Shown: one piece after another, positions 2,934-57,842 of the stretch
Layout of the letters: every line of letters starts with the position of its first letter
Position numbering within the stretch: position 1 is the stretch's first letter
Assembly: GCF_004010195.1 (NCBI RefSeq)
Contig: NC_057751.1
Coordinates: 18,197,325-18,261,324 of the forward strand
Source of the DNA: Chiloscyllium plagiosum
Lineage: Eukaryota
Length of the DNA: 64,000 bases
Direction of reading: 5' to 3'
Position numbers and translations under genes: made by a program
Notes under the pieces: generated by a model
The model's database searches: none
What the model was told of the DNA's origin: nothing
What the model saw: the letters and a program-made list of their open reading frames with translations, nothing else

Positions 2934-3205
2934 ACAAAGGATTTGACTCTGACAACACTAGATTGCACTGGCACAAGAATAGATTGGAATCAAAGATTAT
3001 TCGATTGTCATGATCCAACAATGATTCTGGATGTGAAAGCAATAGATTGCAATTGGACAGCAACAGTTCAGAATGTGAACACAATCAGTTGAATGGTCAA
3101 ATCATGCAAATTGCCTTCAGATGGGACCAACACATCGCATCAGCAGAATCGTTCAGATGATTCAATTCGTTTACCATCCCATACTTTTATTTGCTGGTGC
3201 ACTTG
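2934..3205 (+). pseudogene. Putative exon 1 remnant of a GPR139-like pseudogene (heptad-repeat N-terminus + first half of TM1)
   Basis: 3121-3205 translates MGPTHRISRIVQMIQFVYHPILLFAGAL+G, which is phase 1 and ends at G|GCGATT (GC or decayed donor). It is preceded by seven 21-nt repeats in another frame that end in a stop at 3090-3092. Confidence 0.6.
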
Positions 3206-4438
3206 GCGATTTCTTTAAATTTCTAATTATTTTTGGCATTTAGTATGTATCCCTTGCTGCTGTTGATGTTTCTAGTGTTCATTCAATAAATACCATTGTT
3301 AAATGCATGTGCTTTTAATTTACTCTCTGCACTGTGCTACTCTGCACTACTCTCGTATGTCTAACAAATCTCTGAGAACCAAAATTCGGTGTGTAAACCA
3401 TGCGAATTTAGTTTTCTTTCAAGGATGAGTGACTTACTATTGTAATGCATATGCTGTTGTAGACTTTTATCGATATAAAACAAAGCTTTTTTCTCCTATT
3501 CGTTGCAAACCTATTTGTTTAATCAATAACTATATTATAGAGCCACGGTATTGGTGCACCTCTGATGTTTCATCCACTTCCAAGTTACTTGTCACAAACA
3601 CATGCTTGCGTTATCCCAATTCCTACTCTTACTGCTAGTTCCTGCATTCTCATTCCAACTTTCCTAAGAGCAAGCCCCGAGGCTGAGGGAAAGACAGTGG
3701 TTTGAAGATACCTGGAGCACAAAGCAGTCTTGACATTTTGAGTCTGATATGATAATTCTTCCCATTCTTGACAACTATGTCACGTTGTTACATTTTGTAA
3801 TTATATCCTGGGCATTGTTTATGAAGTTTATTTGCAATAACGAAGATTGAAATGTAGAAAATGCAAATGTAGGAATCAAGAGCCAGTGTAGGCTATTCAG
3901 TCCCTTGATATTTTTCTGATAATGTGCTGCCTTCTCCTTTTTAGAGAGCTGGAGTGCTGGGTTTGGAAATTATCGCCTGAGGTGTATTTTTGAGTTTCCA
4001 CAGGACTCTTGTGGTACATACTGCACTAATTAATATTACAGATGGAAGGAATAAATGTTTACATTGTTAGCTATGATCAAACATCGTTGACCACATTGTA
4101 CTGGATGACATACATTCAACCGACTTTGAATTATTTCATTCATTTCCTGATGACAGAAAGTAGCTTAGACCCCTGTGCAAGAGTGCAAGTACTCACTAAC
4201 AGAATCTTCATGAGAAGAAATTAAAGGAAGTGTCTTAGTATTTTTCCAACACTCCTGTACTGGATAATTGGTTACTGATCTGATGAGGGAGGACGTGGGA
4301 GTTTATGGTGCAGTGTCTTTATTCAAAATTAAAACAGGAGTACTCAGTAAACATCAGGGGAAGAACATGAGCGACAACGTTAAAAATAACACAACACCAG
4401 GTTGCAGTCCAGCAGCTTCAGTTGGAAGTATCAACTGT

Positions 4439-4752
4439 GGGCGGCACGGTGGCACAGTGGTTAGCACTGCTGCCTCGCAGCGCCAGAGACCCGGGTTCAA
4501 TTCCCGACTCAGGCGACTGACTGTGTGGAGTTTGCATGTTCTCCCCGTGTCTGCGTGGGTTTCCTCCGGGTGCTCCGGTTTCCTCCCACAGTCCAAAGAT
4601 GTGCAGGTCAGGTGAATTGGCCATGCTAAATTGCCCGTAGTGTTAGGTATAGGGGTAAATGTAGGGGTATGGGTGGGTTGCGCTTCGGCGGGTCGGTGTG
4701 GACTTGTTGGGCCGAAGGGCCTGTTTCCATACTGTAATGTAATCTAATCTAA
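4439..4752 (+). mobile_element. HE1-type tRNA-derived V-SINE, full length, in the intron of the first GPCR pseudogene
   Basis: Pol III A box TGGCACAGTGG (4450-4460) and B box GGTTCAATTCC (4494-4504). V-domain core GTGTGGAGTTTGCATGTTCTCCCCGTGTCTGCGTGGGTTTCCTCCGGGTGCTCCGGTTTCCTCCCACAGTCCAAAGA, a CR1-derived tail and an (AATCT)n end. Confidence 0.93.
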
Positions 4753-5245
4753 AAAACTTCGAGATTGCTGCTCCTTCATCGGGTTACAAAGCAAGTTACA
4801 GAAAAATGGCGTAATTCAGCACGGAGACAACTCCTTCAGCCCAACCAGTCCATGCTGAATGTTGTCCACTATTTACCCAGACTACCTGTCTGCTCCGAGC
4901 CAATATCCCTCCAAATGTTTCCAATTCATGCATCTATTCAAATGTCATTTGGACGCTGTAATTTGGGACACTAATCACGACTGACATATTGTGGTTTTAC
5001 ATCAATCCTTCAGCTTAGCTCTCGTGATTTTTAACATTTGTTTCAATATTCACACCAATTGTAAGGAAGCTTTTGGGCCTACAGTAATGTTTAAGTTGTT
5101 TTATATTTTGATTTCATGAACAGATAAAGTGCGACAGTGATCGTTAGCTTCTGCAGATGACCTCATGATTGTTTCACGGATATATAATCAGTATTTCCTT
5201 GACTCCGACCAGAGTCGATAAGTTAATTGTTCCATGTATTCTCAG

Positions 5246-6142
5246 CTAATAACTACCTATTGCATTCCTGTCCCGGGAATGTGTGGTTACTATCATCGAG
5301 TCACTTACTACCAGGTGACCGTGGAAAACGCAGATCTTCTGGTCATTATCTTTGACCTCGTTTTGGGACACATTCCATTCTGTGTAAGGAAAAGATACAT
5401 TTCTACACGCCATTCCTCTGTGTAATATCCATGTTGTCCTTATTTATGCTGCGACTGACTGCTGTGTCTTGTTTACTGTCACTTTTACCTCTGATCGATT
5501 TGACGATATTTGTTGCACAAATTTGAAAAGTAAATATTGCAATGTTAAAGAAGCAGCTGAGTTGCTGGGTCCAGTTACTGCACTAAGCTGCTTGAAGAGC
5601 TTCGTTTGCTATTTTAAATTTAGAGGTCAGTATAAAAAGAGGAACAGACCATGGATTTGTTGGATGATAAGTGACTTCACGTTTTCTTCAGTCAGGAGGA
5701 ACAATTGAGTTCTTTCATTATTTACAAACATTTGGAGTTTCCTGTATTCCTATTCTGTTCATCAGTGCTTTAATGGTTACACACATTATCGTGAATAACA
5801 AAGCACGTCAAAGACGCCACTACTACAGCAACAGAAAGAGTGCAGACTTCCCGAGAGGACGAGTCAAAGAAATGCCATCACTTTACAGGTTCTTACCTCA
5901 GAGAATTTCATTCTGATCTACTCTGTATCAGTGGCATATTCTATAAATTGGCGAAAGGTATGTTTGGGATATAAGACTGTATGTCTACCTCTGTTTCAAG
6001 GAACTGTTGCAAATGTATCCAGATGATCAGTTTCCGCACAAACACGCTGATTTATCTTGTGACACGCCCAACCTTCATTGAGCAATTGAAAAACGTGGTG
6101 ACCTATTTCTTTACTCCAATTCTCAAATACATTAAACATTGA
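5246..6142 (+). pseudogene. Exon 2 of a frameshifted GPR139-like GPCR pseudogene
   Basis: Acceptor TATTCTCAG|CT AAT. Fragments in different frames are collinear with the intact receptor: GMCG..VTYYQVTVENADLLVIIFDLVL; IPLCNIHVVLIYAATDCCVLFTVTFTSDRFDDICCTNLKSKYC; RPWICW; TIEFFHYLQTFGVSCIPILFISALMVTHII; RNAITLQVLTSENFIL; RTNTLIYLVTRPTFIEQLKNVVTYFFTPILKYIKH* (TGA 6140-6142). At least four frameshifts. Confidence 0.9.
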
Positions 6143-6689
6143 GACTGACTAAAGACTTGCATCATCCCGAATCCATAGTACATTCTTTCTGGTGCAATCC
6201 AAATACCCTGGCTTCCGGTCAAGGGACACTTTTGGTTCGAACTTATATCTCCTACACTACAACCTGTGATTTTATCCATCCATTATGGTCCTGCTACCTG
6301 CGCTGATGCACTTGCTTGCCTTCCTTTTCTCCAAGTGCTTGTGACTGATGTGGTATATGCTGACGTAAGTTAGATCGAGTCGCAGGAGTAGTATCTATTC
6401 AAGTTGGGCTATTCAAGCCTGATCGAAACATGATAAAATGTCATCAAGCTTGATGTTGGGAACCATCATCATGAACCTGGTATCTTGAAATCAGAAAACT
6501 GAAATAGAGATCCATGCAAGCCCTGTCGGTTTCCATCGACTGGAGAAGAAAGTGAAAAGTTAACATGAGAAAAAAACGCAGTAACTGTCATTTCTTCAAT
6601 AATTAAAATTATATGTGCCACTAAGACCGTCTATAATGTGGTCAATATACAGTCAGTGACTAACTTCGTATTGTAAAGATCGTATCTTT

Positions 6690-7830: not shown

Positions 7831-8429
7831 ATGAGTATGATTCAATGCACTGAATTCTACAAAGTAGATTGTTAAAAAGATCTACCAGGAACATCAATAG
7901 TGGCGAGAATAGTGTTGTATAATTTAGCGAACATTTGCCTAGGAAGATGCACTTTTTAAAAAGAAATTCTGAAACAATATCTGCCTTCCTGCTGCAGGCA
8001 ATCCCTCAGAATTGGAGAATTTTAGCGGAATTGTTGACGAAACAGGTCAGAGAGGATACTTTATGTTGTGTGTTAACTCCAATAGGAACCTTTGATTTTA
8101 TTGTAATTTTTATTTTGAATTAAGCAAAAAAATATAAAAGTAACGCCAGGTTTTTACTTATAGTGTGGTGTGTCACATTTAGGTTTAAATTAGTATTTGA
8201 ATACCCCACGGAAACGAGTATCCTGATCCTGATCCTCAAATGTTAATTGCAGTTTGTCTCCAAGCAGCATCAATTATTACATATGTCCAGCTCCTTGAGA
8301 GAGCTTTTTTTTTTGTTGTTACACGCTTAATTTTGCCTTTCTACGTGAGGATTTAACTTTTCCACAAGTTCAATTACTAACGGTTTGAAATTGATCTTGG
8401 AAGCCAAACTTATGGATCAACTCATGATC

Positions 8430-10375
8430 ATCAGTCATTTCAGCTATAATTGATCAGACAGTGGACACAATCAGGAGCGGATAGATTACAAAGCAGATGT
8501 CATTGGATCTGTTAAATTCACTGAGTTACATGAGAGAGATGAAAATTTAAAGCAATTTTATCAAAAGCCATACACAGAAAAATAATCCGAATCTACCTCT
8601 GAAAGTAAGGTTTTCGTGATAAATGGCGGCCATCCCAAGATGTGTAGGTCAGGTGAATTGGCTATGCTAAATTGCCCATAGTGTTAGGTGCGTTTTGTCA
8701 GTGGGAAATGGGTCTGGGTGGGTTGCTTTTTGGAGGGTCGGTGTGGACTCGTTGGGCTGAAGGGCTGTTGACACACTGAAAGGAATCTAATCAAATCTAA
8801 TCTAATCATATCTTCCGGCAGATGAGAACTGGACAGAAGCTCATGAATCGTATTGCCAGGATCTAACAGAAAAGAGATGTTGCGAATAGCGCATGAGCAA
8901 CACCGAGGGGATGTTTTTGGAGTGAGAAAAACTTATGCTAAAGCACAAAAGTAATTTTATTGTCCTGCACTGCCAAGGATGTTGTCCAATTTTCCCAGAT
9001 AAGTCATGTATTTCAGCTCATTGGAAGACCGCAGGCAGTAATAAAACTTGCATCTTCAATACCGATTTCTGCATTTGAGGAACCTTTCTTCAAGATTCTT
9101 AATGATTGTGTGGAATCCCTACCCAAAACAAAATCAGTAATTGTTAGCAATATAGGATTTTTACACTAGATTTCCAGAGGCCTTTCCATTCTGCAATATC
9201 ACAGATAAAAGGATTGTAGAGGACTCAAATATTACATTAGTTATGGACTATCCAGAGAGATACAATGAGATCAAGCGTTAATTTTCACATCGAACATATG
9301 CAAGGAGGTTATATACAGCTTAGGAATAAAACAACTCGAATCTACTACTTACCATCCAGAATTGCAGGGAACGTGAGGAAAGTGATATCAGATATTAAAG
9401 GCCATGTTGAGTGCTGATAGTCAAGATTATCCAGATGATTGGATAATGCAATTGCTTTTGTAGTTTTTGTGATCAGAGTGAATCGACAAAATACAGTCCA
9501 GTTGAATTAGTTTATGGGTAGGAGGTGAGATGACCATTGAATTTGATTCAGAGAAAAATTGTAGGTTGGAATTCAGAGACTATACATGTTTGGATGATGT
9601 GCCAAATATTGGGGAACGATGAAATAGAGCACGGAAAATCACTTGACAGAATTCAAAACTCGCAGAGCACACAATGAATCAGAAAGCAGACATGAAGTTA
9701 TAATTAGAACAAGCATTTATCAGATTTGTTCGATCCACTAAGAAGACAGAATTACTTATAAAACTGTCTGAATGTGAATTTGCCAGAGCCCAAGTTACCA
9801 TCTTGGGCCATCTTGTTGGATATTGACAAATGACTCCAAGGAACGCACATTCAAAGATAATGGGCGAGTTTCCCATAAGATCAACAAAAGGAGCAGTCTT
9901 ACCGCTCCGACGATTGAATGTATTTTCTCAAAGAAACGTAATGGCTTTAGCAGTGTTGTTTCTCCACTTACTGAATTGCTAAACAAAGGCAAGAGCTTTC
10001 AGTGGACAGCGAACTCTCACAAGGCACTTGACAGCCTGAAAGGATTATTAACCACTACTCCAGTATGAGCCACACCTAATGAAGTAAACACATTCAAGAT
10101 GGCTATCGATGGAACTAATACAGGTATCAATGTTGTGCTCTTGCAGGAAGACGAGCAGAAGATAGAAAGACTACGGGGTTTTTCTGCAGGAAATTGAAGT
10201 TCATCTGCAGAAATGTTTGACAGTTGAGCAGTGGACTTTGAGCTTGGTATTGGCGTTACAACTTTGCATCTTTATGTTACCAATAATGCCTCTGAGACAA
10301 TTTTATGTACTGACGATATTCTATTGAAGTTCGTGGAGGAATTTAAGGACTGATATGCCAGACTGCTTGGATGAT
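8430..10375 (+). mobile_element. Gypsy (Gmr1-type) LTR-retrotransposon pol remnant: integrase followed by RT end and RNase H, with an internal deletion
   Basis: Integrase remnants LRIAHE..GVRKT, IPISAFEEPFFKILNDCVESLPKTKS and STTYHPELQG (about 8870-9560) lie upstream of the RT/RH remnants CEFARAQVTILGH, FSSVVSPLTELLNKGKSFQWT and KMAIDG..VVLLQEDE (about 9770-10370). Confidence 0.88.
8638..8807 (+). mobile_element. 5'-truncated HE1-type SINE inserted in the Gmr1 remnant
   Basis: GATGTGTAGGTCAGGTGAATTGGCTATGCTAAATTGCCC ... (AATCT)n, matching the 3' half of 4439-4752. Confidence 0.85.
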
Positions 10376-10705
10376 TAAGAGGAGACACGAGGGAAAAAGT
10401 ATTCAACCAGCAAGTAGTGAAAATCTGGCACGTATTACATTAGGGTGGTGAAGCCAGCCGCCACAAGTAAACATTGCGGTGAGTTTTAAAGTGTACTTGT
10501 GACGCCAGGACATAAAGTGCTATGATGTAAGTATAACAAATCGGTTTACTATTGCTAGCTGATTTGTTTTGAATGCCATAGAACGGACGGGCTGACATCT
10601 CCCAGCAGATATGTGCTTACACACGATAAATAAAGGTTGTTTTACTTCAGGACATATGTCGAACGAACAAATACCTACAGGTTGAGTCAGAGGAATACCA
10701 AGGTG

Positions 10706-11693: not shown

Positions 11694-12450
11694 CTACAAT
11701 GTAAAAGCGAACACAGTGGTTGCAGATGCCGAGACTGACCAATAGGTGGCAATAGACACAATCCCACAACGAGAGAACTGAATCACTGCCTTAATCTCAA
11801 AACCGACGAAATCAGACAGAAGAAGACAAAAATTCCAAAAAAATGAAACCAGACGAGTCCAACACATCACACTTCTATGGACTACCAAAATTCACAAATT
11901 AGGAGCGTCCTCCCCACCCCTGACCCAGAGTCTCACTACAGGGAATACTAGTGTACAGACTAGCAAAGGAAATGCAAACAGGTAAAACACTTAATAGAGG
12001 ACTGACGTCACTCCATTCACTCCATCCAAGAATTCTTGAACACCATCAAAAACACCAAGACAGAAGAGTATAAAATAATGATCCACCTCTGACATAACAG
12101 CCCTATTCACATCTATCAACATCAACCTGGCTAAAGAAACAGTGAATACACGATTAGAAGAACCAGAGACACAAAGACCAGACACTGCCAACTCCATAAA
12201 ACAAAGAAAATATCGTCAAAATAGTACATCTATGCCTGCCCACACGCTTCACGTTCATTAACAGGAACCTCATGAAAACCAACGGACCACACATCTGATC
12301 ACCCATTTGAGCGTTCCTAAACGAAGCAGTCACTTTGAGAGTCGAACAAACAGCGAAGGGTACCATCTAACCCAAAAGTTTGGTCTGCTACGTGGGTGAC
12401 ACCTTTATAACCACTAAACGAAACAAAATAGAGGAAATCTTCAAGAGCAT
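11694..12450 (+). mobile_element. Penelope-like element, 5' part (RT), interrupted by a CR1
   Basis: Remnants FYGLPKIHK, DITALFTSININLAKETV and WVCYVGDTF-like, collinear with the minus-strand Penelope at 41262-43477. Confidence 0.85.
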
Positions 12451-14965
12451 AGAACATAGAACAGTAGAGCGCAGAACAGGCCCTTCAGCCCACGATGTTG
12501 TGCCGACCACTGATCCTCATGTATGCACCCTCAAATTTCTGTGACCATATGTATGTCAAGGAGTCTCTTAAATGTCCCCAATGACCCTGCCTCCACAACT
12601 GCTGCTGGCAACGCATTCCATGCTCTCACAACTCTCTGTGTAAAGAACCCGCCTCTGACATCCCCTCTATACTTTCCTCCAACCAGCTTAAAACTATGAC
12701 CCCTCATGTTAGTCATTTCTGNNNNNNNNNNNNNNNNNNNNNNNNNNNNNNNNNNNNNNNNNNNNNNNNNNNNNNNNNNNNNNNNNNNNNNNNNNNNNNN
12801 NNNNNNNNNNNNNNNNNNNNNNNNNNNNNNNNNNNNNNNNNNNNNNNNNNNNNNNNNNNNNNNNNNNNNNNNNNNNNNNNNNNNNNNNNNNNNNNNNNNN
12901 NNNNNNNNNNNNNNNNNNNNNNNNNNNNNNNNNNNNNNNNNNNNNNNNNNNNNNNNNNNNNNNNNNNNNNNNNNNNNNNNNNNNNNNNNNNNNNNNNNNN
13001 NNNNNNNNNNNNNNNNNNNNNNNNNNNNNNNNNNNNNNNNNNNNNNNNNNNNNNNNNNNNNNNNNNNNNNNNNNNNNNNNNNNNNNNNNNNNNNNNNNNN
13101 NNNNNNNNNNNNNNNNNNNNNNNNNNNNNNNNNNNNNNNNNNNNNNNNNNNNNNNNNNNNNNNNNNNNNNNNNNNNNNNNNNNNNNNNNNNNNNNNNNNN
13201 NNNNNNNNNNNNNNNNNNNNNNNNNNNNNNNNNNNNNNNNNNNNNNNNNNNNNNNNNNNNNNNNNNNNNNNNNNNNNNNNNNNNNNNNNNNNNNCTTATC
13301 AAATGCCTTGCTGAAGTCCATATACACCACATCCACAGCTCGACCCTCATCAACGTTTCTAGTCACATCCTCAAATAACTCGATAAGGTTTGTGAGGCAT
13401 GACCTGCCCCTTACAAAGCCGTGTTGACTGCATTTAATCAAGCCATACTCTTCCAGATGGTCATAAATCCTATTCCCAGAATCCTTTCTAACACCTTGCA
13501 GACGACAGACTTACTGGTCTGTAATTGCCGGGAATTTTCCTATTTCCTTTCTTGAAGAGAGGAATTACATTTGCCTCTCTCCAGTCCTCAGGAACCACTC
13601 CAGTGGAGAGCAAGGATGAAAAGATCTTCGCAAGTGGTGAAGCAATTGCATTTCTCGTTTCCCAAAGCAGCCGAGGACACATCTGGCCCGGGCCTGGCGA
13701 CTTGTCAATCTTAATGTTTGACAAAAATTTCAGCACATCAGCTTCCTCTATCTCTATCCATTTCAGCATGTACATCTGCTCTTCAAAGGTTTCATTCACT
13801 GCAAAGTTCGTTTCTTTCGTAAATACAGAAGCAAAAAACTCATTTAGGGCTTCCCCTACCTCCTCAGACTCCACACACAAATTCCCTATGCTATCCCTGA
13901 ACGGGTCTACTCTTTCTTTGACCATTCTCTTATTCCTCACATAAGTGTAAAATGCCTTTGTGTTCTCCCAAATCCGTTCTGCCAAGCCTGTCTCGTGCCC
14001 CCTCCTGGTTCTCCTCAGACCATGTTTAACACCTTCCTTGCCTGCCTGTAATCCTGTAGAGCTGAGCTTGACCCTCGCTTCCTCCACCTTACGAAAGCTA
14101 CCTTTTTCCTTTTGACGATCCTTGCCTGCCTGTAATCCTGTGGAGCTGAGCTTGACCCTAGCTTCTTCTACCTTACGAAAGCTACCTTTTTCCTTTTGAC
14201 GAGAAGCTCCACCGCCCTCGTCATCCAAGGTTCCTTTATCTTACCCCTTCTTGCCTGTCTCAGAGGGACATATTTATTCATCACTTAAACAACTGTTCCT
14301 TAAACAGTCTCCACATGTCTATAGTGCCTTTACCATGGAACAACTGCTTCCAATCCATGCTTTCTAACTCATGTCTAATCGCATCATAGTTTCCTCTTCC
14401 CCAATTAAAAATCCTCCCATTTTGCCTAATCCTCTCCTTCTCCATAGCTTTGTAGAATGTGAGGCAGTTGTGGTCACTATCACCAAAATGCTGTCCCACC
14501 ACAAGATCTGATACCTGCCCCGGCTCATTGCCAAGCACCAAGTCAAAATGGCCTCTCCCCTCGTCGGCCTGTCAGCGTACTGAGTTAGGAAACCCTCCTG
14601 AACACAACTTACAAAAACAGCTTCATTCAAATCTTCTGCTCGAAGGAGTTTCCAATCAATATTGGGAAAGTTAAAGTCACCCATTACAACAACCCGACTA
14701 CGTCCACACTTTTCCAAAATCTGCCGACTTATGTTTTCTTCCATCTCTCTGCTGCTATTGGGGTGCCTGTAGTAAACCCCTAAAGAGGTGACTGCTCCCT
14801 TGCTGTTCCTAATTTCCACCCATACTGACTCGGTAGGCAGATCTTCCTCAACAATGGAAGCTTCTGTAGCTGTGAGGCCCTCTCTGATTAGTAGTGCTAC
14901 AGCCCCTCCTCTTTTTCCCAACCTCCCTATTCTTTTTAAATTCTCTAAACCCTGGAACATCCAGC
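12451..14965 (-). mobile_element. Relatively young 5'-truncated CR1 LINE (EN, tether, RT, 3' tail) spanning an assembly gap
   Basis: ORFs with GKRGGAVALLI, SVWVEIRN, VVVMGDFNFPNIDW, KSPGP, VPEDWREANVIPLFKKG, QHGFVRGRSCLTNLIE and DFSKAFDK; 3' tail (GTTCTAT)n at 12451-12461. Confidence 0.95.
12722..13294. other. Assembly gap (573 N)
   Basis: Run of N inside the CR1 RT region. Confidence 1.
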
Positions 14966-16165
14966 AACCATCCAGCAAGAAGATCAATAATATCCCTACT
15001 GGCATAGCATTCACGAAAGTGGAAGAAAACAGCAGCGAACTACCATTCCTGGATGTCACAATAGCGCAGTCAGTAGGAAATTTCAAACCAGTTTCTCCTA
15101 AAAAAATAACGCATATGTACCAAATATTGAACTGCAGAAGCAATCATCCAAACAGTTACAAGCGACGCTGCATTAGGTCATTAGTTCAACAAGCCACCAT
15201 ACACTGCGAAGAGTATTAAAAAAAACACTTATACAGGCAAACAATACCACAATCCACCAATTTCTAGCAGAAAATACAAAGAAGAAAACAAAACGAGCCC
15301 AGAAGCCCTAAACACTTTTCCCTACAACAAAGACATCTCTGAGATGATTGCCATACTACTCAGAACTCTTGGAATCATGTTAGCCCACAAATCCGCCAAA
15401 TTACAGGTAATGAATTTCTAAAGACCCGAATCAGACAACAAGCAAAATGAACGTCATTTACAAAACACCTTAAAAGGACTGCCAAAAAACCCCACTGCAT
15501 TAGACACACAGGCAGAAAACTAGCCACCAGGACACATTAACGTCAACTAGTCACAAAAAGGCATGACCCACTATCACTAATATCCATACTACACATAAGG
15601 ACACCACTTTACTTCGACACCACATCCATCCTAGGACAAGCCAAACAGAGACCCAGAGCGCCAGAGACCCGGGTTCAATTCCCGCCTCAGGCGACTGACT
15701 GTGTGGAGTTTGCACGTTCTCCCCGTGTCTGCGTGGGTTTCCTCCGGGTGCTCCGGTTTCCTCCCACAGTCCAAAAATGTGCAGGTTAGGTCAATTGGCC
15801 ATGCTAAATTGCCTGTAGTGTTAGGTAAGGGGTAAATGTAGGGGTATGGGTGGTTACGCTTCTGCGGGTCGGTGTGGACTTGTTGGGCCGAAGGGCCTGT
15901 TTCCACACTGTAATGTAATCTAATATAATCTAATCTAATCATTGCACTCCAACTGTAACTCTATCAAAAACACATTACTTTACAACTCATTTGACTTCCA
16001 CTGATAAAAAGAACCATAAATGACAGCACCAACACTCAATGAAGCGTAAACACAGAAATTAGAAGTGGGACATAACACCAGTGCTTCCTGGGCGGCTCAA
16101 TGAAAAAGGTACCTCGTAATGTGACAAAACATCTGAAACCGAACCTTCCAACTCAGCGAGCAATG
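14966..16165 (+). mobile_element. Penelope-like element, 3' part (RT end, GIY-YIG, 3' end with decayed hammerhead motif)
   Basis: INNIPTGIAFTKVEENSSELPFLDVTI and LNCRSNHPNSYKRRCIRSL continue the frame broken at 12450. GIY-YIG remnant NVIYKTP..GRKLATR. The 3' end resembles the reverse complement of 41265-41350. Confidence 0.85.
15657..15940 (+). mobile_element. HE1-type SINE lacking its A box, inserted in the Penelope element
   Basis: Nearly identical to 4479-4752 (B box GGTTCAATTCC, V-domain, (AATCT)n tail). Confidence 0.93.
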
Positions 16166-16504
16166 TCACATGCTCCTGATTTGTTCCTGCAGGTTTTGCC
16201 ATCGTAAAGTCTTGTTTAGTACCTTAATGCTTCTGCCACACAAAGTTCTGTCTGCTTTATCGTCGCTTACACATTTGATTGATTTGTGTACATTTGTTCT
16301 CAGAAGCTGAAAGCAACTTATGCCACCGAGTAAATGATAGAACATGCCCAACACAGGGCTGCGTTGGTGGTGGTGGTGGTAGTAGGTCTGTGTGCAGGTA
16401 TAAGGAGAATTAAAGAGGGGTAAGGCCCGTCCAATAACGCAAACAGATCTTTAACTTTAATGACTCAGCTTCTGAGCACAGGAGACTGAATGGGGACATT
16501 GAAT

Positions 16505-35640: not shown

Positions 35641-36031
35641 ACACAATATGAAAATGTTTTAACGACAATACGCCCGTTCATTTTACTTACATTGCTGAAC
35701 ACAATGACAATAAGACACATTTTAAACTCCAGTCATGTCTGGAAACAATAAAAGGGCCAGAGGAATGAACAGAAAGGCAGGGACAAATAATTAGAGAGTA
35801 GAAGAGAGTGTGCAATTTTACTTTTCAACATATCCACCGGTTTCATACATCTGTGGGTGTGGTATCTCTTAAGTTATCTAAACGTTGATTGTCTATTGGA
35901 TATTGATAGCTTACAGTTGTTGTGTCATGTTTCAAGATTTGAGTTGCGGTATGTATACCATTATTTATGTAGCGACTCTGTCCAAGCTCAGATAACAGTT
36001 CAGGAATGTAGCAATATCTCTTTTTATGTAA
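35641..36031 (+). pseudogene. TM5-TM7 fragment of a GPR139-like GPCR pseudogene
   Basis: Translates TQYENVLTTIRPFILLTLLNTMTIRHILNSSHVWKQ*KGQRNEQKGRDK*LESRRECAILLFNISTGFIHLWVWYLLSYLNVDCLLD, then after a frameshift LSCGMYTIIYVATLSKLR*QFRNVAISLFM*. This aligns with the intact gene (PFILILFFNTLTVKHIF; SISGSFIFLWLWYMLSY; TIVYVAILSKFRE). Internal stops at 35749, 35788 and 35993. Confidence 0.88.
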
Positions 36032-45584: not shown

Positions 45585-46540
45585 TCTATCCCATTCCTCC
45601 TGACCTTCTGAACGAGTCTACCATGGGGAACCTCATCAAATGCCTTGCTGAATCCATATACACCATATCCACCGCTCGACTCTCATCAACTTGTCTCGTA
45701 ACATCCTCAAAGAACTCAATAAGGTTTGTGAGGCATGACCTGTCCCTCACAAAGCCATGCTGACTGCATTTAATCAATCTATGCTCTTGCAGATGGACAT
45801 AAATCTTATCCCTCAGAATCCTTTCTAACACTTTGCAGACAACAGATGTGAGACTGACTGGTCCGTAATTGACGGGGATTTCCCTATTTCCTTTCTTGAA
45901 GAGGGGACTTACATTTGCCTCCCTCCAGTCCTCAGGTACGACTCTGGTGGAGAGCGAGGATGCAAATATCTTCGCAAGCGGCGAAGCAATTACATTTCTC
46001 AATTCCCAAAGCAGCCGATGACAAATCTGGTCGGGCCCTGGCGACTTGTCAATCTTAATGTTTATCAACATTTTCAACACATCAGCTTCCTCAATCTCTA
46101 TCCTTTCCTGTATGCACACCTGCTCTCAATGGTTTCATTCACTACAAGGTCCTTTTCTTTAGCAAAGACAGAAGCAAAAAACTCATTTAGGGCTTCCCCT
46201 ACCTCCTCAGACTCTATACGCAAGTTCCCTATGCTATCCCTGATCGGCCCGACTCTTTCTTTGATCATTCTCTTATTCCTCACATACGTGTAAAATGCCT
46301 TTGGAATTTCCCTAATCCTTCTTGCCAAGCCTTTCTCGTGCTCCCTCCTGGCTCTCCTCAGACCATTTTTGAGCTCCTTCCTGGCCTGTCTATAATCCTC
46401 TAGAGCTGAGCAGGACCCTTGCTTCCTCCACCTTACGTAAGCTGCCTTCTTTCTTTAGACGAGAAGCTCCTCGGCTGTCGTTATCCAGGGTTTGTTTATC
46501 TTGCCCCTTCTTGCCTGTCTCAGAGGAACACATTTGTAAC
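45585..46540 (-). mobile_element. CR1 internal fragment, same subfamily as 12451-14965
   Basis: KAFYTYVRNKRMIKERVGP, KIDKSPGPDQIC and QHGFVRDRSCLTNLIEFFE; near-identical peptide to the 13488-14228 ORF. Confidence 0.93.
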
Positions 46541-50479: not shown

Positions 50480-51200
50480 CGCCTTCAACTTCATGACACA
50501 CACTAATAACAGAAAATCTAACCACCACGACTTGGTATTGAAATATGTTGCCATCAGGGATCTTCCCACCAGATGCACTCTGAGAGTTATCATTGATCAG
50601 AAACACAACCTGATTCCTCACATGAACGCACTGGGTACAAAGCCAACTCAGAGGCTCGGAATACCATGGCGACAGTCTCATCTCCTCACTCCCTAAAACC
50701 TGTCGACCATCTACAAGACACAAGTAGGAAGTATGATTGAATATACACAACTGCCGAGAAGCTTGACACCATCCAGGCAATATCAACCTGCCTGACTGGT
50801 GCATCCACAAGCATCTACTCCCTCCATCACCGTCATTCAGTAACATCTACTATCTACAAGATGCACTCCAGAAATTCACCAAGAATCCTAAGACAGCACC
50901 TTGCAAAGACATGGCCGCTTCCACCTCGGAAGACAAAGGTATCAAATATGTAGGAACAGCATCAACTTCAAGTTACTTTCCAAGACACCCTCCATCCTGA
51001 CTCGTAAACATATCCCCGTTCCTTGACTGTCACTGCTTCAAAATCCTGAACTCACCCCCAATAACATTGTGGGTCAACCTACAGCAGGTGTACTCCTGCA
51101 GTTCAAGAACACATCTCACGACTATATTCTCAAGGGCAGTGGGGACAAGCAAAACATTCTGGCCATTCAGCGACGCCCACATTCGACAAATTAATCAAAC
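50480..51200 (+). mobile_element. 3' fragment of another CR1/L2-group LINE family
   Basis: LRVIIDQKHN..QRLGIPWRQSHLLTP*NLSTIYKTQVGSMIEY (YKAQVR..EY-type thumb motif); 3' end CTGGCCATTCAGCGACGCCCAC. Confidence 0.65.
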
Positions 51201-53124
51201 CAAAATCACTTGGAATTATCCCCAAGTAACTCTTTATTAAGGAAAGGGGAACATTCCAGTGACAAATGGAAATCAATCGTCTACTCCATTGTAGTCACAG
51301 TCACTGAGCAAACAGCGTCAATTTACTATGCCATTCAAACGCTTATAACATGGTAGTGTCGAACTTCGACTTTACTTATTGTCATACTCTCTTGAACACT
51401 TTTGCTGTTTATATTCATTTCTTAAAAAGTTGACTGTATCCCACTCTTTCCGCTAGCTTACTACCCATCACCTCTCTTCTCTCCTCATAATCTCCACACA
51501 GTTTATTCCTTGGAGTTTAACTCATTTGGTCATCAGGATTTTTCAATTGATTGCTTTGTATCCAGTTCCTATTCCTGCCACTGCCTCAGTTCCGAAAATA
51601 GCCAAAGAATCACTCTCAATGCACCCACCTCTTCCACAGTTGATTGCGATTTAGATAAAAATATCTTCATTATATTGCTCCTCAACTGGATAGTCTCACT
51701 TTCATCCATATGGTACTGCATAAGGCTTATGCTTGCCCACTCCACCAACTTGTCCCAATTGCACCGAAGAATAGCTGCGTCCTACTTATAATTCTTCCTT
51801 CTTTGTGCTGTTTGGAAAACTGAGGATATTATTTGTTTACGTCATCTAAATCATTAATGTGTATTGGGAATAGCTGGGCAGCAATGACTCATATGTATGG
51901 TCCCTTCCTGGTCATTAGGAGACACAAGGAAGCTTGAAGTGTTGAATAGACTGATTTAACCTGAGAATGTACCGAAGGGTTTCTTCGAAATACATTTTAA
52001 AGGTCGGAAATAACATATGGCTTCACTGTCCCCAATATCTAATGAAATGGCAGATGTGCGAGTGTTACCATATTGATTTCGATATGAAGGGAAATAGGGA
52101 TCCTGAATGTGATCAATAAGCACTGCTTGAGTTTTGTTGATTTGGACCTGTTTCGAATTGAGTAACAGGCAGCAGTGAGATTGCTAACTCCAGTTTTAAA
52201 ATGTTGGCGATCTGTGAGGCAACGCAGACATCCATTGGAACAATCGAGTCAAGGGAATGCAGTAGAAGGAATGATGTTTTCTGAGACGAGGCTGACACGG
52301 TGATATCGCGAGTGGAGAAAGAAAGTTAGCAGAGGGACACCAGCAGAAGTGGAATTAATTCAGGCTCAGAAACGGGTTTGTCACCGTGAATGTCATTAAA
52401 ATTCACTTAAAAAATAACTGACACGAGCAGTTTTGTTTTCCAACATTGTGTTTTTCCCTACTACACTCTCCCGCTCTCCCCACCTCCAACCCAGCCTGAC
52501 CATCTGTGAGGAGATTAGAGTCGATTTACAGTGGAAGTGGAGAAATGGCTTCTGATCCTGTTTCACTTCCTGCACTGCAGAAGGTATTCTGACTGTCGTC
52601 ATTCCCACTTTACGTTTTGACACTCGAAGGTCAGTTTTGGTGACTTCTCTCCAGCATGTCTGACTCTTCATGTGTTTTTCAGCCCTCAGTTAATATACAG
52701 AGATTGTCAAATTTTGCATTCAACAACATCAAACAATTCAGAGATGATGCAGAAAACGGGGTGGATCGAGTTCATCAACCATGACCTGGTTAATTTAGCA
52801 AAGTGCTCAAAAAGTTGAAATACACACTGCTGTTTATATTTCTTATCGACTTATTTTCATTCTGCTCTCTGTTCTATATTTCCTTTTCACCAGCGTTGCT
52901 GAGTTTTGCCCTACTTTTCAGCAACTTCAGGTCTTCAGAAAGTCACCTCAAGACTTCAATGTTCTGTTGTTTCTAATCCAACAGCTCCTGCCAGTGTTCT
53001 TCTGATTCTCCAGCTTTCCAATTCTTCTAAATGGTTAATATCAATTTTACATTCTTTTCCCTCAACGTGATGCGCTCTGGCGTTGATTCTCGTTTCACTT
53101 TGATCGCTTTTCTTGTCACATTAT

Positions 53125-53996
53125 TTATGTAAAGATAGCTTCCAGTGGGTTCTTGAGTTTCTCTCTGAACTTTGAGAGAATTGCAACATAAACAATGGTG
53201 TTTGTGCAACAATTCAAATTCCGCAACATGTATGCAAATGTTTGAAACATATATTCCCCTTGATCATCTAAATGACTGTAAACACCAAAATAAGATAACA
53301 TATACCATAACCACAGAAAAATGAAGGAGCCAGATATGGATAAGAGCAAATTCACAGACTGCTTCCGATTCTCCACCTCTGGATCCCTTGCGGTGTCTCC
53401 CTTATTTTCATCCTTCAGACCCTTTAGGCCCTTACGAACTTGACTGGCCATGAAAATGTGCTTCACTGTCAAAGTGTTAAAGAACAGAATTAAAATAAAT
53501 GGAAGTACTGGAGTTAAAAATTTTTCAAAGTATTTAAATGCTCTCCACGTAGGATCATAATAATATGCATACGAATGAGAACAGCCCCATGGCACATTGT
53601 CTACAATCGTGAATGGTCGAAATCTAAAGTATATTGGAATATTTTTCAAACAAAGCAGAATTCCAGATGTTGCCAAGATTATGGTGGCAGTTTTCTTAGT
53701 ACAGAATTTAAATTTCAACTTCTCACAACAAATGGTAACATGTCGATCCAAGGTGAAAGTGATAGTAAACCAGACAGAGCAATCTAGGACTGCACGGCAC
53801 AGAGCATAGTGAACACTACAAACTGGGGTGATGTCAAGGAAGGATGTGGGGAAGTAATCATATCTGATTTGCCTGAGTATGATCTCAAAGATAACGAACA
53901 ACAGATCCATCATTGCCATGGCCAGCAGGTAACATGTGGTGCAGGTAGACAGTCCACAATTTCCTCGGGACAAAATCGCAACCGTCAATAAATTGA
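53125..53996 (-). CDS. Exon 2 of the GPR139/GPR142-like GPCR (TM1 end to C-terminus; spliced product 312 aa)
   Basis: A polypyrimidine tract and acceptor TTTCCTTTTCTCTTTCTTTTGCAG|TC AAT TTA give the phase-1 join G+TC = Val (..GLPVNLLTVAILSRGNCGLS). The open frame has 7TM hallmarks: LAMAMMDLL (TM2), PVC (TM3 Cys), FTLDRH (DRY position), PWGC (ECL2 Cys), LTPVLPF (TM5), NCCTNTIVY (TM7) and helix 8 FREKLK. Confidence 0.92.
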
Positions 53997-54534
53997 CTGC
54001 AAAAGAAAGAGAAAAGGAAAGCAATAGACACTGAAAAATACAAACAAACATTTTCCACTTTTGAGGCAAGATGGTAATGCTTAGATCTTTGTAACACTGT
54101 GTACGTGAGTAGATTTGAATAAGACGTTCTTAATAATAATTATTTCACCCATATGCTTCCAATGCTGAGCCTCCATGTTGAACACAGACGGAATGTGAGC
54201 GTGCGTCACATTGCACATAGGGCAAAGGTAGACGGGTTAATATTAGAATCAGGGACAAAGAAAAACCTGTGTCCGGAACCATCTGCTGCATTCAGCTAAA
54301 TTCCAGAATTGGGAAAACCCAAGTTTGACTTTATATTTCAGTCCAGATTAAGAGAACACTTTCTGCACACTCAGAGCACTGCCATGGGATTAAATAAAAA
54401 ATTCTCGGAACAATCCCTTTTATTGGTGTTACATGGAGGAAGGATTAGAATTGAAGTATAGGTTTGACGACACTATACAAGCACAAACAAAATAAAACAT
54501 TGGACCACTTCTGTTCGACAATTAAAAAAAGTTG

Positions 54535-54848
54535 ACATACTGGCTCAGTGACTGACACTGCTGTCTCACAACGCCGTGGACCTTGGTTAAATTTCAGCCG
54601 CGAGTGACTGTGTGCAGTTTGCACTTTCTGCCCTTGCCTGACTGTGTTTCCTTCAACAATCCAGTGATGTGCTGGTTAGAAAAATTGGCCATGTTAAATT
54701 GCCCATCATGGTCAGGGATGCGTAGGTTAGATGCATTTGTCAGGGCAAAAATGTAGGAGGGTCGCTCTGTGTGGGTTACTCTTCTGGAGTTCGGTATGGA
54801 CTTGTTGGGCCGAAGGTCCTGTTTCCACACTATAGTACTCTATTCTAA
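54535..54848 (+). mobile_element. HE1-type SINE (diverged) in the GPCR intron
   Basis: TGGCTCAGTGACTGACACTGCTG..GACTGTGTGCAGTTTGCAC..GGACTTGTTGGGCCGAAGGTCCTGTTTCCACACT. Confidence 0.85.
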
Positions 54849-55799
54849 AAGGTAATTCTATGTGTGTTAACTTAAACATACGGCAATTGAAAATAAAACA
54901 CTTTGAAGTCAGGGTTTCCAAAACTCAAGACACGTGGAGTTATTAATTCAGATATATCTGGTATTTGCAAGGATAATGCCTTTAGAAATTTGAACGTTAG
55001 AGCTATATTGAAATGCTTGTGATTTTGCCCTTGCAATAAGAGAATGTTGATGACTGATCAACCACTGGCTTTTCAAATTACAATGAAATTGTTTGTGTGA
55101 AAACTTGACAAACGTATTTCCATTTGTGATAGTGCGCCGAAAGGGAAAATAGCTACTAATAGATTCTCTGATAGACTCAGAGACCACAGTCATTTGTTTT
55201 GTCGATGTGAACTTGCAGCCATGACAAAACGATAACGATAAAATTTATGCATGAAGGAGACAGGAATGTCAGGATGCGGTCGTAAGGTTGAAATAGCTGA
55301 AATAGAAATAGGGTTATTTGCAGGATGAAGACAGTCATAGTCAATTTGGTTTAAATGCCAACATTCCAGCTGCAAAGGCAGTAAATTTATTCTTAGGTAA
55401 TGACAGTCATTCGTACTTTCCTCTCAATGAAGTTATATCCATCATAGAACATAAGGTTTTCAGAGTAGTGCTCAGTGAAGGAGATGAATCAGCTCGAGAA
55501 GATGTTTAATCTGCTTGACGTTAAAATAATGTGGTGCACCATCTTGATATATTTGCACCGAAATACATGAATGGATCGTGAACTCAAAGCATAGTCAATC
55601 GGATCAGATGTCTGAGTCCAGTCAGGTATCCAGTTTGAGAACAGTTCCAAAGCGAAAAAAACCACAGTAACATACTGTAAAGGATAGGTTCCCTGACCGA
55701 TGGATTTTGCACAATGAAAAATGCAATAAATCGACAGCTGCTTAACTTTTCTCTACTGAGCGCATGGTATTAAATATAACAAGATTTCAAGTGCTCATC

Positions 55800-56322
55800 T
55801 TCTTTTTCTGGTATGAGGATTCTCGTTGACTTAATCTCCCAGGCAGTCCATTCCAGAAACCCAGAATCTGCTTGGTGAAAAATATTGTCCTGCGATCTCT
55901 TCTAATACTCAGTACCTGCACTTGTAAATTTTGTCGGTTTGTCTTTGAAATTTCAAAGAACAGCAACAGGCAATTTTATTTCACTCGTTTCATGACCATC
56001 ATAATTTTAAATACGTCTATACTTTCGGATCTTATCTGCCCCAAAGAAAACAATGGGAGCTTCTCCAACTCCCCTAATAGCGGAAATGCTTCCTCCCAGG
56101 GCAATAACCTTATGCATCCCGGTTGCCCTCGCGCTTCAGTTAGCACATCCGTCCTATAATATGATGATGAAAAGTGCGCACACCACTGCACTGGTCACCT
56201 GAACAAAGATCTGACTTTCTCAAATGTGACATACTCGTTATTATCAGCTATTGCAGGAACGATAAAGGCAAGGGTTCCCGAAATCCTCTAAACTGAATTA
56301 TGAAACGTTCTGCCACTTTCAG
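55800..56322 (-). mobile_element. Very old CR1 3' fragment in the GPCR intron
   Basis: QWCAHFSSSYYRTDV..LEKLPLFSL..IDVFKIM resembles the CR1 thumb region. Confidence 0.55.
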
Positions 56323-56972
56323 GGGTCACCCAGGTGGATTGTGTTGTTAAGAAGACTTACGGTGTGTTAGGTTTCATTGATAGAGGGATTGAGTTCCGGA
56401 ACCGCAATATCATGCTGCAATTATACAAAAAGCTGGTGCAGCCTCACCTGGAATATTGTACAAAGTTCTGGTCGCCCCATTACAAAAAGGATGTGCAAGC
56501 ATTGGAAAAGGTGCAGAGGAGATTTACCAGAATGTTGCCGGATCTGGAGGGAAGGTCTTGTGAGGAAAGGCTGAGAGTCTTGGGTGTTTTCTCATTGGAA
56601 AGAAGAAGGCTAAGGGGGAATTTGATACAGACATACAAGATGATCAGAGGATTAGATAGGGGAGACAGAGAAAGACCTTTTGCTAGGATGATGACGTCAG
56701 CTTGTACGAGAGGGCATAACTACAAATTGAGGGGTGATAGATTTTAGACTGATATCAGAGGCAAGTTCTTTATGCAGAGAGTGGTAAAAGCGTGGAATGC
56801 ACTACCTACCAAGTTCGTCAACTCACACACATTAAGGAGATTTAAACGATCCTCAGATAAGCACAGAGATGGTTTGGGATAGTGTACGGGGACGAGCTGA
56901 GAATAGTTCACAGATCGGTGCAACATCGAGGGCCGAAGGGCCTGCTCTGCGCGGTATTGTTCGATGTTCTAT
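56323..56972 (+). mobile_element. CR1 3' end in the GPCR intron
   Basis: LYKKLVQPHLEYCTKFWSPHYKKDVQALEKVQRRFTRML..TRGHNYKL; tail GTTCGATGTTCTAT. Confidence 0.93.
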
Positions 56973-56974
56973 AG

Positions 56975-57455
56975 CGTCATGGACGCCTAATGATATGCAG
57001 CATGGAAACAAACCTTTACTTCCAATACCTTACGTCCACAGCGACCAGATATACGAAACCAATCTAGTCCCATTTGTAAACATTGGGCCCATATTCCTCT
57101 AAGTCCTTCCTGAACTCACCCTAACACCTTTTAAATGTTGTAAATGGATCAGCCTCCACTACTCTATCTGGCAGATCATTCCATGTACGCACCAAAATCC
57201 GTGTGGAAATGTTGGCCCTTAGGTCGTTTCTAAATAATTCCCTCTCACCTTAAACCAAAGACCTCTGGTTCTGTACTCCCCTAACCCAGGGAAACTACCT
57301 AATCGATTTACCCTATTCATGCTCTTCGAATTTCTCTGTAAGGTCACCCCTCATCATCTGATGCTCCACACAAAAGAAAACAGTCCCAGCCTATTCAGAC
57401 TCTCCTGCCAGCTCAAAAGCCCTAAGCCTGCCAACAAGCTTGCAAATCTTTTCTG
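56975..57455 (-). mobile_element. CR1 3' end, tail-to-tail with the previous copy
   Basis: IQKRFASLLAGLGLLSWQESLNRLGLFS, plus 3' UTR similarity to the 31223-32353 copy. Confidence 0.8.
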
Positions 57456-57482
57456 AATGAGAGGCAGAATGACAGTGATATC

Positions 57483-57620
57483 ATAAAACTCGAAAAGTGT
57501 GACACTTAAAAAGCACAGCAGGTCAAGCAGCTTCAAAGCAACAGGAGAGTCCATATCTTGGACATAAGCGCCACAGGTTTAAACACTAATCTCCAGCATC
57601 TGCAGTTCTCAATTTCTCCA
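57483..57620 (-). mobile_element. Degenerate Penelope-derived short element
   Basis: GCACAGCAGGTCAAGCAGC..CAGGAGAGTC..GGACATAAGC then ATCTCCAGCATCTGCAG..TTTCTCC, the same layout as 28636-28803. Confidence 0.6.
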
Positions 57621-57775
57621 AGTAATATCACAAAGTGGGGAGAACTGAAAATAATGGAGATATCACACTAAAAACTGGATAATTAATATTTTAATTAATA
57701 TTGCAGGCAGCATTATTGTTCCTTGGTAACTTTCAAAACTGGGGTAAGATGGAGAGTTAAACATAAGTCACTTAC

Positions 57776-57842
57776 CAGGAAGACCAACTATGCCAAGGGC
57801 CATATAGAATACTCTCCTCAGTGTCAAGATTGGAAAATACAT
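57776..57842 (-). CDS. Exon 1 of an apparently intact GPR139/GPR142-like class A GPCR (MYFPILTLRRVFYMALGIVGLP + 1 nt)
   Basis: The minus strand reads ATG TAT TTT CCA ATC TTG ACA CTG AGG AGA GTA TTC TAT ATG GCC CTT GGC ATA GTT GGT CTT CCT G|GTAAGT. That is 67 nt (phase 1) followed by a consensus donor, and it encodes the first half of TM1, which the downstream ORF lacks. Confidence 0.85.

Follow-up and report, generated by a model that had tools for sequence, protein, structure and literature searches.

This 64,000-nucleotide window of the Chiloscyllium plagiosum genome, by which we mean the whole stretch of DNA analyzed, raises the question of which receptor family its genes belong to, whether that family is turning over rapidly at this locus and what its members might sense. 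The window holds one intact gene and at least four dead pieces among retrotransposon insertions. We read it as part of a long-standing, mixed cluster within a receptor repertoire of elasmobranchs, a chemosensory role included, and put the probability of this account as a whole at roughly 0.55.

The intact gene lies on the minus strand (57842-53125) and comprises two exons encoding a predicted class A GPCR of 312 amino acids. Exon 1 (57776-57842; 67 nt, i.e., 22 codons plus 1 base, with the ATG at 57842) encodes a short N-terminus and the first half of TM1, scores 12.9 bits on the exon-1 profile and ends in the donor G|GTAAGT. The predicted GT-AG, phase-1 intron (53997-57775, 3779 nt; junction G|TC AAT) contains fragments of high-copy repeats according to repeat depth in the DNA runs, and exon 2 (53125-53996) runs from the remaining part of TM1 to helix 8 and the stop TAA. 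A TATAAT hexamer on the same strand (57927-57932), about 90 nt upstream of the ATG, is a possible TATA box. The protein matched Pfam 7tm_1 (PF00001) with an E value of 1.7e-15 and 57.7 bits (curated cut-off 30.5), and at E<=1 this was the sole match, with no family model of OR, V1R, V2R or T2R. The class A residues N1.50, D2.50, R3.50, P5.50, N7.49 and Y7.53 are present, as are, from sequence and model, the TM3-ECL2 cysteine pair, the DR motif and W6.48. The AlphaFold model of exon 2 (pLDDT 90.7) shows the helices and an ECL2 hairpin. A fold search returned the mu-opioid receptor (VIA Z 23.6, rmsd 3.2, 261 aligned) in a tie with dozens of class A chains; it picks out no single relative, and the absence of GPR139 among the best 50 listed excludes nothing. 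Residues and model together characterize the product as a class A (rhodopsin-like) GPCR with seven helices plus helix 8, which retains 65 of the 70 near-invariant family residues. One DNA contig of run X1 covers exon 2 with five substitutions and no gap. The intron is covered in runs X1 and X3, both of which behave as DNA. On 50500-59000, the single-cell run X5 (about 2/100 of the run) gave 544 reads, partial and in repeat-rich bins, with a depth of 0 over exon 2, and X6 gave 0 reads; at 2-6/100 per run these data are uninformative on expression, and no splice joint of the gene occurred in the reads on this interval. Orthologues are probably present in two other carpet sharks.

Pseudogene A, on the plus strand, represents a subfamily with a long N-terminus. 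Its decayed exon 1 (2934-3274) holds remnants of IDWNVTT-type repeats, a stop, a frame change and two in-frame ends of TM1 that are separated by 69 nt (G3205|GC and A3274|GT), the donor after G3205 being GC instead of GT. Each TM1 end scores 8.5 bits on the exon-1 profile, which is within the range of the shuffle maxima (0.3-10.2, six shuffles), so that the exon is assigned on position and similarity and not on score alone; the N-terminal repeat-unit profile (8.7 bits) did not beat its shuffles either (maxima 7.2-16.4). Exon 2 (5246-6142) follows an AG and extends from TM1 to the C-terminus with the junction G|CT AAT, which bears out the phase-1 intron at TM1 that the first-pass annotation had described for both two-exon copies. 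Compared with its best relative, P0122, it carries at least five frameshifts and no stops across 5253-6136; it is 52% identical to that relative and 34% to the intact gene, and retains 39 of 69 near-invariant family residues (relics overall 57-60%). The earlier description as a two-exon frameshifted pseudogene is therefore upheld, for exon 1 with the caveats of the GC donor, the second TM1 end and the low score.

A lone short-type exon 1 lies on the minus strand (7886-7952, 67 nt), with an open frame, a phase-1 GT donor and GTG at the expected position of the ATG. It scores 18.6 bits on the profile, as compared to 12.9 for the intact exon 1 and a null maximum of 9.3 (eight shuffles), and an ungapped comparison of the two exons matches 34 of 67 bases, which 3 of 127866 positions attain, these two exons among them. 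No exon 2 partner was found for it leftward on the minus strand within the window. Relic B (16169-16336, plus strand) spans the end of TM2, TM3 and ICL2 (HMM E 1e-11; 3 stops in 53 codons) and is matched by 112 of 121 queries. Relic C (35641-36031, plus strand) spans TM5 to helix 8 (HMM E 5.5e-28; 3 stops, 1 frameshift). For relic B, the 11 rows from the clade of the intact gene come at ranks 44-253 of 279, which places this relic outside that clade, while rows of the clade occupy ranks 1-6 of 279 for relic C, which points to a dead sibling from the same carpet-shark clade. The possibility that B and C are halves of one gene (collinear, same strand, 19 kb apart) was rejected on balance because the intact gene's clade comes out on top for C but not for B, a judgment that is uncertain as B is short. 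All three paralogues initially reported in mixed orientation, i.e., the pseudogene (+), the TM5 to helix 8 relic (+) and the intact gene (-), were thus recovered, but the cluster extends beyond these three, the TM3 relic and the lone exon 1 having been missed.

The proposal that the locus itself is tandemly expanding and rapidly turning over was not supported in that form. Pseudogene A and the intact gene, only 34% identical, belong to subfamilies that each include distant sharks and that, judging from their membership, predate the main shark lineages; the sole close sibling is relic C, and the intact gene has its probable carpet-shark orthologues. A recent tandem duplication was likewise rejected, as self-BLASTN among the coding pieces gave only matches of 66-79 nt at 73-74%. 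Common upstream DNA of the three exon-1 copies is weak, being equaled by 3-149 of 300 random windows in nine comparisons, and self-matching repeats cover 29% of the window. No array of a 26-bp satellite preceding the genes occurs in the window at score 50, nor in 57800-64000 at score 30.

The family as a whole comprises 838 clusters (90% identity, E<=0.001) among 1693 candidates, and 104 representatives at 50% identity and E<=1e-30. An elasmobranch name is carried by 119 of the 120 matches listed for the intact gene and by 99 of the 100 listed for pseudogene A, with zero overlap between the two lists. Members number from dozens to more than 100 per shark species and are automatically named 'probable GPR139' in databases. 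Of the 224 rows counted in the elasmobranch lists, at least 107 come from Heterodontus francisci, 106 of which still fall into 72 groups at 85% identity; such per-species counts derive from annotation clusters and may include alleles and unplaced haplotypes. Thirty-five of 120 rows listed sit on a single Heterodontus contig of 74.5 Mb, and the tree contains a species-specific bloom in which Heterodontus supplies 36 rows to a clade of 40 tips. Across 278 family rows, 70 columns are near-invariant, with a median of 97% retained. It is very probable that the cluster genes belong to a large elasmobranch GPCR clade with birth-and-death evolution, and in this respect the first-pass annotation was right: cluster numbers, trees and pocket ratios (see below) describe a large, clustered family with a diversified pocket. 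We found no paper on this family, most subscription journals being beyond reach, and GPR139 is not mentioned in 24 supplements of the whale-shark paper.

Elasmobranch rows form one clade (92/83) whose sister is an amphibian plus sturgeon group (94/72), the SH-aLRT of 72 for this link being under the threshold for strong support, and a second tree has the same shape. The IQ-TREE analysis used 36 hand-picked rows, GPR139 and GPR142 were not part of the trees, and 100 of 409 proteins, short or duplicate cluster members, were dropped from the larger one. Subfamilies span both sharks and rays, and in the IQ-TREE analysis coelacanth P0340 and two teleost proteins group beside the elasmobranch clade. 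Profile A1 (81 rows, four of them chosen as best matches of the amphibian gene, which introduces a small bias) scored amphibian receptors at 216-234 bits, coelacanth at 207, teleost at 139-189, invertebrate at 94-117 and human GPR139 at 78.6. Because amphibian, coelacanth and invertebrate receptors score above human GPR139, the family members are judged not to be GPR139 orthologues, other bony-vertebrate receptors being closer, and the contrast that had been drawn with single-copy GPR139 of mammals is therefore unsupported. The amphibian gene forms about one cluster per species (20 rows, 66-100% identity) and has family members as its best shark matches; this orphan of amphibians and sturgeon, apparently single-copy, would be the nearest outside relative. 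It shares with the family the ICL2 motif CC..LK..YCT, the ICL3 motif DPE....R and C3.25 with the ECL2 cysteine, and differs from it in being present about once per species, in its fixed pocket (K6.51, N7.39) and in its identity of 31-33% to shark members. The orphan probably belongs to the 'GPR210' group, described as comprising GPR210A, GPR210B and a third subtype without a name (Rinne et al., 2019, PMC6504862) in a paper whose text does not mention sharks, and the coelacanth and teleost rows may correspond to the GPR210 of that paper. The family falls in the GPR139/GPR142/GPR210 branch, with GPR139 as best human and solved relative and protostome FMRFamide-type receptors just outside, and a relation of GPR139 and GPR142 to the latter, with a peptide-receptor ancestry, has been reported (PMC8557429, partial text).

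The family profile has GPR139 as best solved relative (78.6 bits; next 57.6), and the intact protein alone scores 22.3 bits against it, equal to the vasopressin V2 receptor. Family and GPR139 are alike in a non-proline at 7.50 (T in 261 of 277 family rows, F in GPR139) and in retaining W6.48; they differ in the TM3-ECL2 cysteine pair, which human GPR139 lacks in the alignment, and P6.50 is lost in most family rows (10/275). GPR139 and GPR142, orphan class A receptors of mammals, respond to L-Trp and L-Phe; hallmarks of GPR139 further include Gq/11 coupling and CNS expression. Binding of Trp/Phe by GPR139 involves R6.51, N7x38 and acidic TM3 residues (3.29, 3.32), and a basic residue at 6.51 is required for agonist binding (PMC8807744, partial text). 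The intact gene has Y254 at 6.51, where R or K occurs in 6 of 275 elasmobranch rows, and Y278, Y86 and C89 at 7x38, 3.29 and 3.32; 4 of 275 rows have N where TM7 aligns with 7x38, and E is outside the eight commonest letters at 3.29 and 3.32. Aligned in this way, the family does not keep these features of the GPR139 ligand pocket.

The paralogues share a conserved cytoplasmic face and differ in the pocket. Entropy in 279 shark and ray rows was 2.18 at 33 pocket positions vs. 1.52 at 174 other TM positions (p 3e-4), the reverse of the 20 amphibian rows (0.22 vs. 0.48, p 0.005). The ratio of pocket to other-TM differences was 2.02 for Heterodontus pairs of 65-80% identity (2066 pairs) and 2.42 above 80% (479 pairs), as compared to 0.45 for amphibian orthologues (190 pairs); these ratios count amino-acid differences between pairs that are not independent, at positions numbered from motifs with a guessed TM4 anchor. 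Within the 11-member clade to which the intact gene belongs, the ratio was 0.96, so that variability in the pocket does not exceed that in the remaining TM bundle. The variation among Heterodontus paralogues reads as the signature of a repertoire, and this signature is missing in the intact gene's clade.

We propose that the family goes back to one orphan class A GPCR in the GPR139/GPR142/'GPR210' branch, which has apparently remained single-copy in amphibians and sturgeon. In sharks and rays, duplications of its two-exon unit would have produced dozens to more than 100 genes per genome, and copies would die by frameshift, stop and deletion amid retrotransposon insertions, as seen in the window. 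Members may all signal through one G-protein pathway yet differ in the polar ligands that each of them binds, small peptides, amino-acid derivatives or amines being the likeliest, and together they may detect external chemicals in the nose, taste buds, skin or gills. That the family is a many-ligand repertoire appears likely from its sequences; for an external chemosensory role we consider the chances about even. Somewhat short of even are those of the more specific proposal that sharks and rays possess a fifth, undescribed olfactory or chemosensory family, recruited independently from a GPR139-branch orphan and exceeding the V2R set in some species. To be set against the chemosensory reading, even the V2R and OR genes of the catshark are expressed in spleen, testis and rectal gland (PMC11979771, partial text).

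Clustering, gain together with loss and a variable pocket would also fit an internal surveillance repertoire, in which leukocytes, mast-like cells or sensory neurons of skin and gut detect microbial or parasite peptides and irritants. Formyl-peptide and MRGPR receptors play such a role in mammals. A variable pocket alone is not decisive, because immune and somatosensory GPCR families such as these also expand with variable pockets. The peptide-receptor ancestry (PMC8557429, partial text) is in line with surveillance, and cartilaginous fishes are reported to be without MAS1 and its relatives (PMC8455134, partial text), which would leave this niche open. However, no sequence tie to FPR or MRGPR was found, the best solved relative being GPR139, followed by peptide receptors, and we regard this explanation, by analogy with mammals, as unlikely. 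A largely neutral expansion, in which a duplication-prone two-exon unit drifts up in number in repeat-rich DNA and most copies are redundant or dying, is distinctly improbable: it would account for the one intact gene vs. at least four dead pieces, the 29% of self-matching repeats, the longer end branch of the intact gene (0.27 vs. 0.11 for its neighbor, IQ-TREE) and the pocket ratio of 0.96 in its clade, but not for 70 near-invariant columns, subfamilies long-lasting across sharks and rays or differences concentrated in the pocket, which drift does not favor; as a weak further point, three of the five coding differences between run X1 and exon 2 are silent and the frame is unbroken in all. 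Least probable is endogenous neuropeptide or reproductive signaling with one internal ligand per subfamily and extra copies for dosage. In its favor, conserved orphan receptors whose pocket is fixed are the closest relatives outside the family, GPR139 is a neuromodulatory receptor of the brain (PMC8807744, partial text) and the pocket is fairly constant in the intact gene's clade; but endogenous peptide receptors are usually stable one-to-one, as said of nematodes (PMC2576165, partial text), and blooms such as that of Heterodontus do not fit.

The preferred reading, a chemosensory repertoire, can be compared with known families. Like OR, TAAR, V1R/ORA and V2R/OlfC, the shark family forms a clustered repertoire with pseudogenes and a variable pocket; unlike them, it has a separate ancestry and their Pfam models are unmatched. 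TAARs are not known to have a Pfam model of their own, and they were not among the nearest relatives in the profile and relative searches. TAARs likewise derive from a non-olfactory class A receptor (PMC8890504, partial text). The nematode srw genes (PF10324), kin of FMRFamide/myosuppressin receptors, are gained and lost at a high rate and have been suggested to detect peptides from the environment (PMC2576165, partial text). They offer an analogy of working, as they are also clustered and evolve by birth and death. Their expansion took place independently and in a different phylum, and the protein of the window matches PF00001 alone at E<=1; PF10324 is found on a minority of members in some look-alike Atlas clusters.

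The locus itself is ordinary, and its interest lies in the receptor family. Cartilaginous fishes have been described as having comparatively few GPCRs and a small olfactory repertoire (PMC11979771, PMC8455134, partial texts), and a family this large under an automatic 'GPR139' label challenges their GPCR inventory, whatever its function. The conserved single-copy sister gene of amphibians provides a handle on the ancestral ligand, and the family gives a concrete test of how sharks smell or monitor their surroundings despite few known receptors. If true, a fifth chemosensory family would overturn the view of cartilaginous fishes as animals with few chemoreceptors and would parallel the srw expansion of nematodes.

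The first-pass annotation had described the locus as a cluster of GPCR genes with one intact and two dead copies, and the present analysis confirms this and adds two pieces, relic B and a lone exon 1. The intact gene, a two-exon class A GPCR gene on the minus strand, begins with a 67-nt exon 1 (ATG at 57842) ending at a phase-1 boundary, which is followed by a putative 3779-nt GT-AG intron of phase 1, proposed on the strength of its splice signals and of a matching first-exon end in relatives, and by exon 2 (53996-53125), for a product of 312 aa in all; no read spliced across this junction turned up. The protein scores 57.7 bits against Pfam 7tm_1, and the AlphaFold model of exon 2 (mean pLDDT 90.7) comprises the end of TM1, TM2-TM7, helix 8 and an ECL2 hairpin. 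Of the residues near-invariant among 278 elasmobranch relatives it keeps 65 of 70; family-wide, the share kept has a median of 97% and a fifth percentile of 87%. Exon 2 was fully covered by one contig from X1, a sequencing run behaving as DNA, with no gaps and five substitutions; two of these change the protein, in conservative or minor ways (K181N, I128V), and the other three are silent. Upstream of the ATG, at a distance of ~400 nt, lies a 49-bp imperfect inverted repeat (58225-58273), at which several bases in contigs of X1 and of X3, a second such run, are unlike the window.

Four dead pieces accompany this gene. Pseudogene A (+) has an exon 2 (5246-6142) that carries five frameshifts relative to its best relative, and an exon 1 region at ~2934-3274, similar to the repeat-bearing long N-terminus of its own subfamily; in this region TM1 can end in frame at either of two sites separated by 69 nt, the first followed by GC and the second by GT, and neither tops all shuffles on the exon-1 profile. 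Relic C (35641-36031, +), interrupted by three stops and one frameshift, runs from TM5 to helix 8, while relic B (16169-16336, +; E 1e-11) covers TM3 and ICL2 with three stops; the relics retain just 57-60% of the near-invariant residues. The lone exon 1 (7952-7886, -) is 67 nt long, has GTG in the start-codon position, keeps its frame open up to a phase-1 GT donor and scores 18.6 bits on a profile of 37 relatives as compared to 12.9 bits for the exon of the intact gene and a null maximum of 9.3; an exon 2 beyond it on the minus strand was not found within the window. Together with the intact gene, these pieces are therefore traces of at least four, and probably five, genes of the family. A further piece could hide in the assembly gap at 12722-13294 (573 N), which lies between retrotransposon fragments.

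Self-matching repeats make up 29% of the window. A long reverse-transcriptase-like frame of 352 aa at 41625-43197 (-), presumably a Penelope-type element, has decayed copies at ~12008-12451 and 14983-15560. LINE fragments, which we take to be of CR1 type, occur at 13488-15143 (-), 45586-46500 (-) and some ten other places; the copies at 13.5 and 46 kb share ~76% protein identity, and an 84-bp tandem duplication lies within one fragment (14035-14202). A very high-copy short interspersed repeat is present at 4430-4752, 8633-8809, 15660-15942 and ~54600-54840, and its intronic copy attracts nearly all mapped single-cell reads, many of which end in poly(A) tails that derive from other loci.

Tandem expansion at this locus is not supported in the form proposed. 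A 12-tip carpet-shark clade (support 1.0) includes both the intact gene and relic C, the partners of the former there being Hemiscyllium and C. plagiosum proteins at 76-77% identity, whereas pseudogene A belongs to a long-N-terminus clade and is only 34% identical to the intact gene. Since sawshark and devil ray proteins lie within the wider subfamily of the intact gene, and sawshark and sevengill proteins within that of pseudogene A, the cluster mixes lineages predating the main shark groups and is no fresh tandem array. Other parts of the tree do contain species-specific blooms, such as a clade of 40 tips of which 36 are Heterodontus rows.

Nor could orthology with GPR139 be upheld. Human GPR139 received 22.3 bits from the intact protein, level with the vasopressin V2 receptor, and 78.6 bits from the family profile, as compared to 216-234 for amphibian proteins, 207 for a coelacanth protein and 94-117 for invertebrate FMRFamide-type receptors. 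The first full-length matches outside elasmobranchs were a salamander protein (31%), one coelacanth and two teleost proteins, likewise auto-named GPR139. The salamander gene reaches up to 166 bits with shark family members but 53 bits with human GPR139; its 25 matches listed include 20 amphibian rows, with about one cluster per species, and one sturgeon relative, but no amniote or teleost proteins. These amphibian and sturgeon proteins (P0336, P0386-P0405) are an unnamed conserved orphan GPCR, in whose amphibian rows N replaces D2.50 and S replaces N1.50. In an IQ-TREE phylogeny of 36 rows, the 24 elasmobranch rows formed a single clade (92/83), sister to amphibians plus sturgeon (94/72), with the coelacanth and teleost rows next; FastTree with 312 tips agreed, both trees having been built without GPR139 and GPR142. 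An orphan GPR210 with three subtypes, from coelacanth, gar and fishes, was placed in the GPR139/GPR142 tree by Rinne et al. (2019; PMC6504862), and the coelacanth and teleost rows probably belong to it. GPR139 requires a basic residue at 6.51 (PMC8807744), which is present in the amphibian, sturgeon, coelacanth and teleost rows but in only 6 of 275 family rows. Judged by these comparisons, the family members are not GPR139.

The family is large. The exon-2 protein search returned 838 clusters at 90% identity from 1693 candidates; among the 120 matches listed, 119 carry a shark or ray name and most are entitled 'probable G-protein coupled receptor 139', the closest being from carpet sharks (64-76%), which makes a carpet shark or close kin the probable source of the window. 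With the pseudogene A piece as query, the matches listed comprised 100 other proteins, none shared with those 120. Among 50%-identity representatives, an exhaustive search gave 410 at E<=0.001, of which 104 reached E<=1e-30. The 224 rows counted across the exon-2, pseudogene A and salamander listings include at least 107 from Heterodontus francisci, 22 from whale shark and 17 from zebra shark, all lower bounds set by the length of the lists, with alleles perhaps among them; clustering at 85% identity still leaves 72 groups among the 106 Heterodontus rows of alignable length, and one Heterodontus contig carries at least 35 of the 120 matches listed. Skate and stingray possess members, while no chimaera protein was found among the rows looked up by name (20 of 150 50%-identity representatives and other named rows). 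Some annotated relatives (P0006, P0008, P0088 and others) contain 1.5 receptor copies or a LINE-derived start, reflecting fused neighbours or a wrong first exon, and gene models often lack the true exon 1 of 67-70 nt. In one subfamily (P0122-P0203), the N-termini carry ~14-residue repeats that contain N-glycosylation sites and vary in number, forming a mucin-like stalk whose length varies.

With regard to function, entropy over 279 shark and ray rows was 2.26 in the extracellular half versus 1.19 in the cytoplasmic half, and 2.18 at 33 predicted pocket positions, a list we took from general class A numbering and located via motif anchors, versus 1.52 at 174 other TM positions. Both contrasts were reversed in 20 amphibian orthologues; at matched overall divergence, the pocket differed 2.0-2.4x as much as the rest of the bundle among Heterodontus paralogues and 0.45x as much among amphibian orthologues. 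The interpretation in the first-pass annotation is supported in part, with pocket variability in keeping with a many-ligand repertoire family-wide, but not in the clade of the intact gene, where the pocket/other-TM ratio is 0.96; therefore, this receptor may have the same ligand class as its close kin. The aspartate at 3.37 (250 of 279 rows) and the many charged or polar pocket positions suggest polar ligands with an amine, and relatives on the same branch are described as responding to aromatic amino acids and amidated peptides (PMC8557429). The family would probably constitute a many-ligand repertoire with a common signalling output, for which we put external chemosensation at a probability of about 0.5. 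That the members are instead immune or somatosensory surveillance receptors is a more doubtful reading, and the remaining odds fall to expansion by drift or to endogenous signalling.

The sequences are not new, because the family proteins are already in RefSeq under an automatic name. Literature searches, thin in their coverage of subscription journals, found no paper describing the family: a term search of the main text of a catshark sensory paper gave no mention of GPR139 (PMC11979771), in the text available for PMC12294341 the name occurs solely in a reference, and a whale-shark paper reports GPCR paucity in cartilaginous fishes (PMC8455134). Expanded GPCR repertoires are an already known kind of system, to which the nematode srw genes offer a close analogy (PMC2576165). 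Taken together, the interest rests on the receptor family rather than on this locus.
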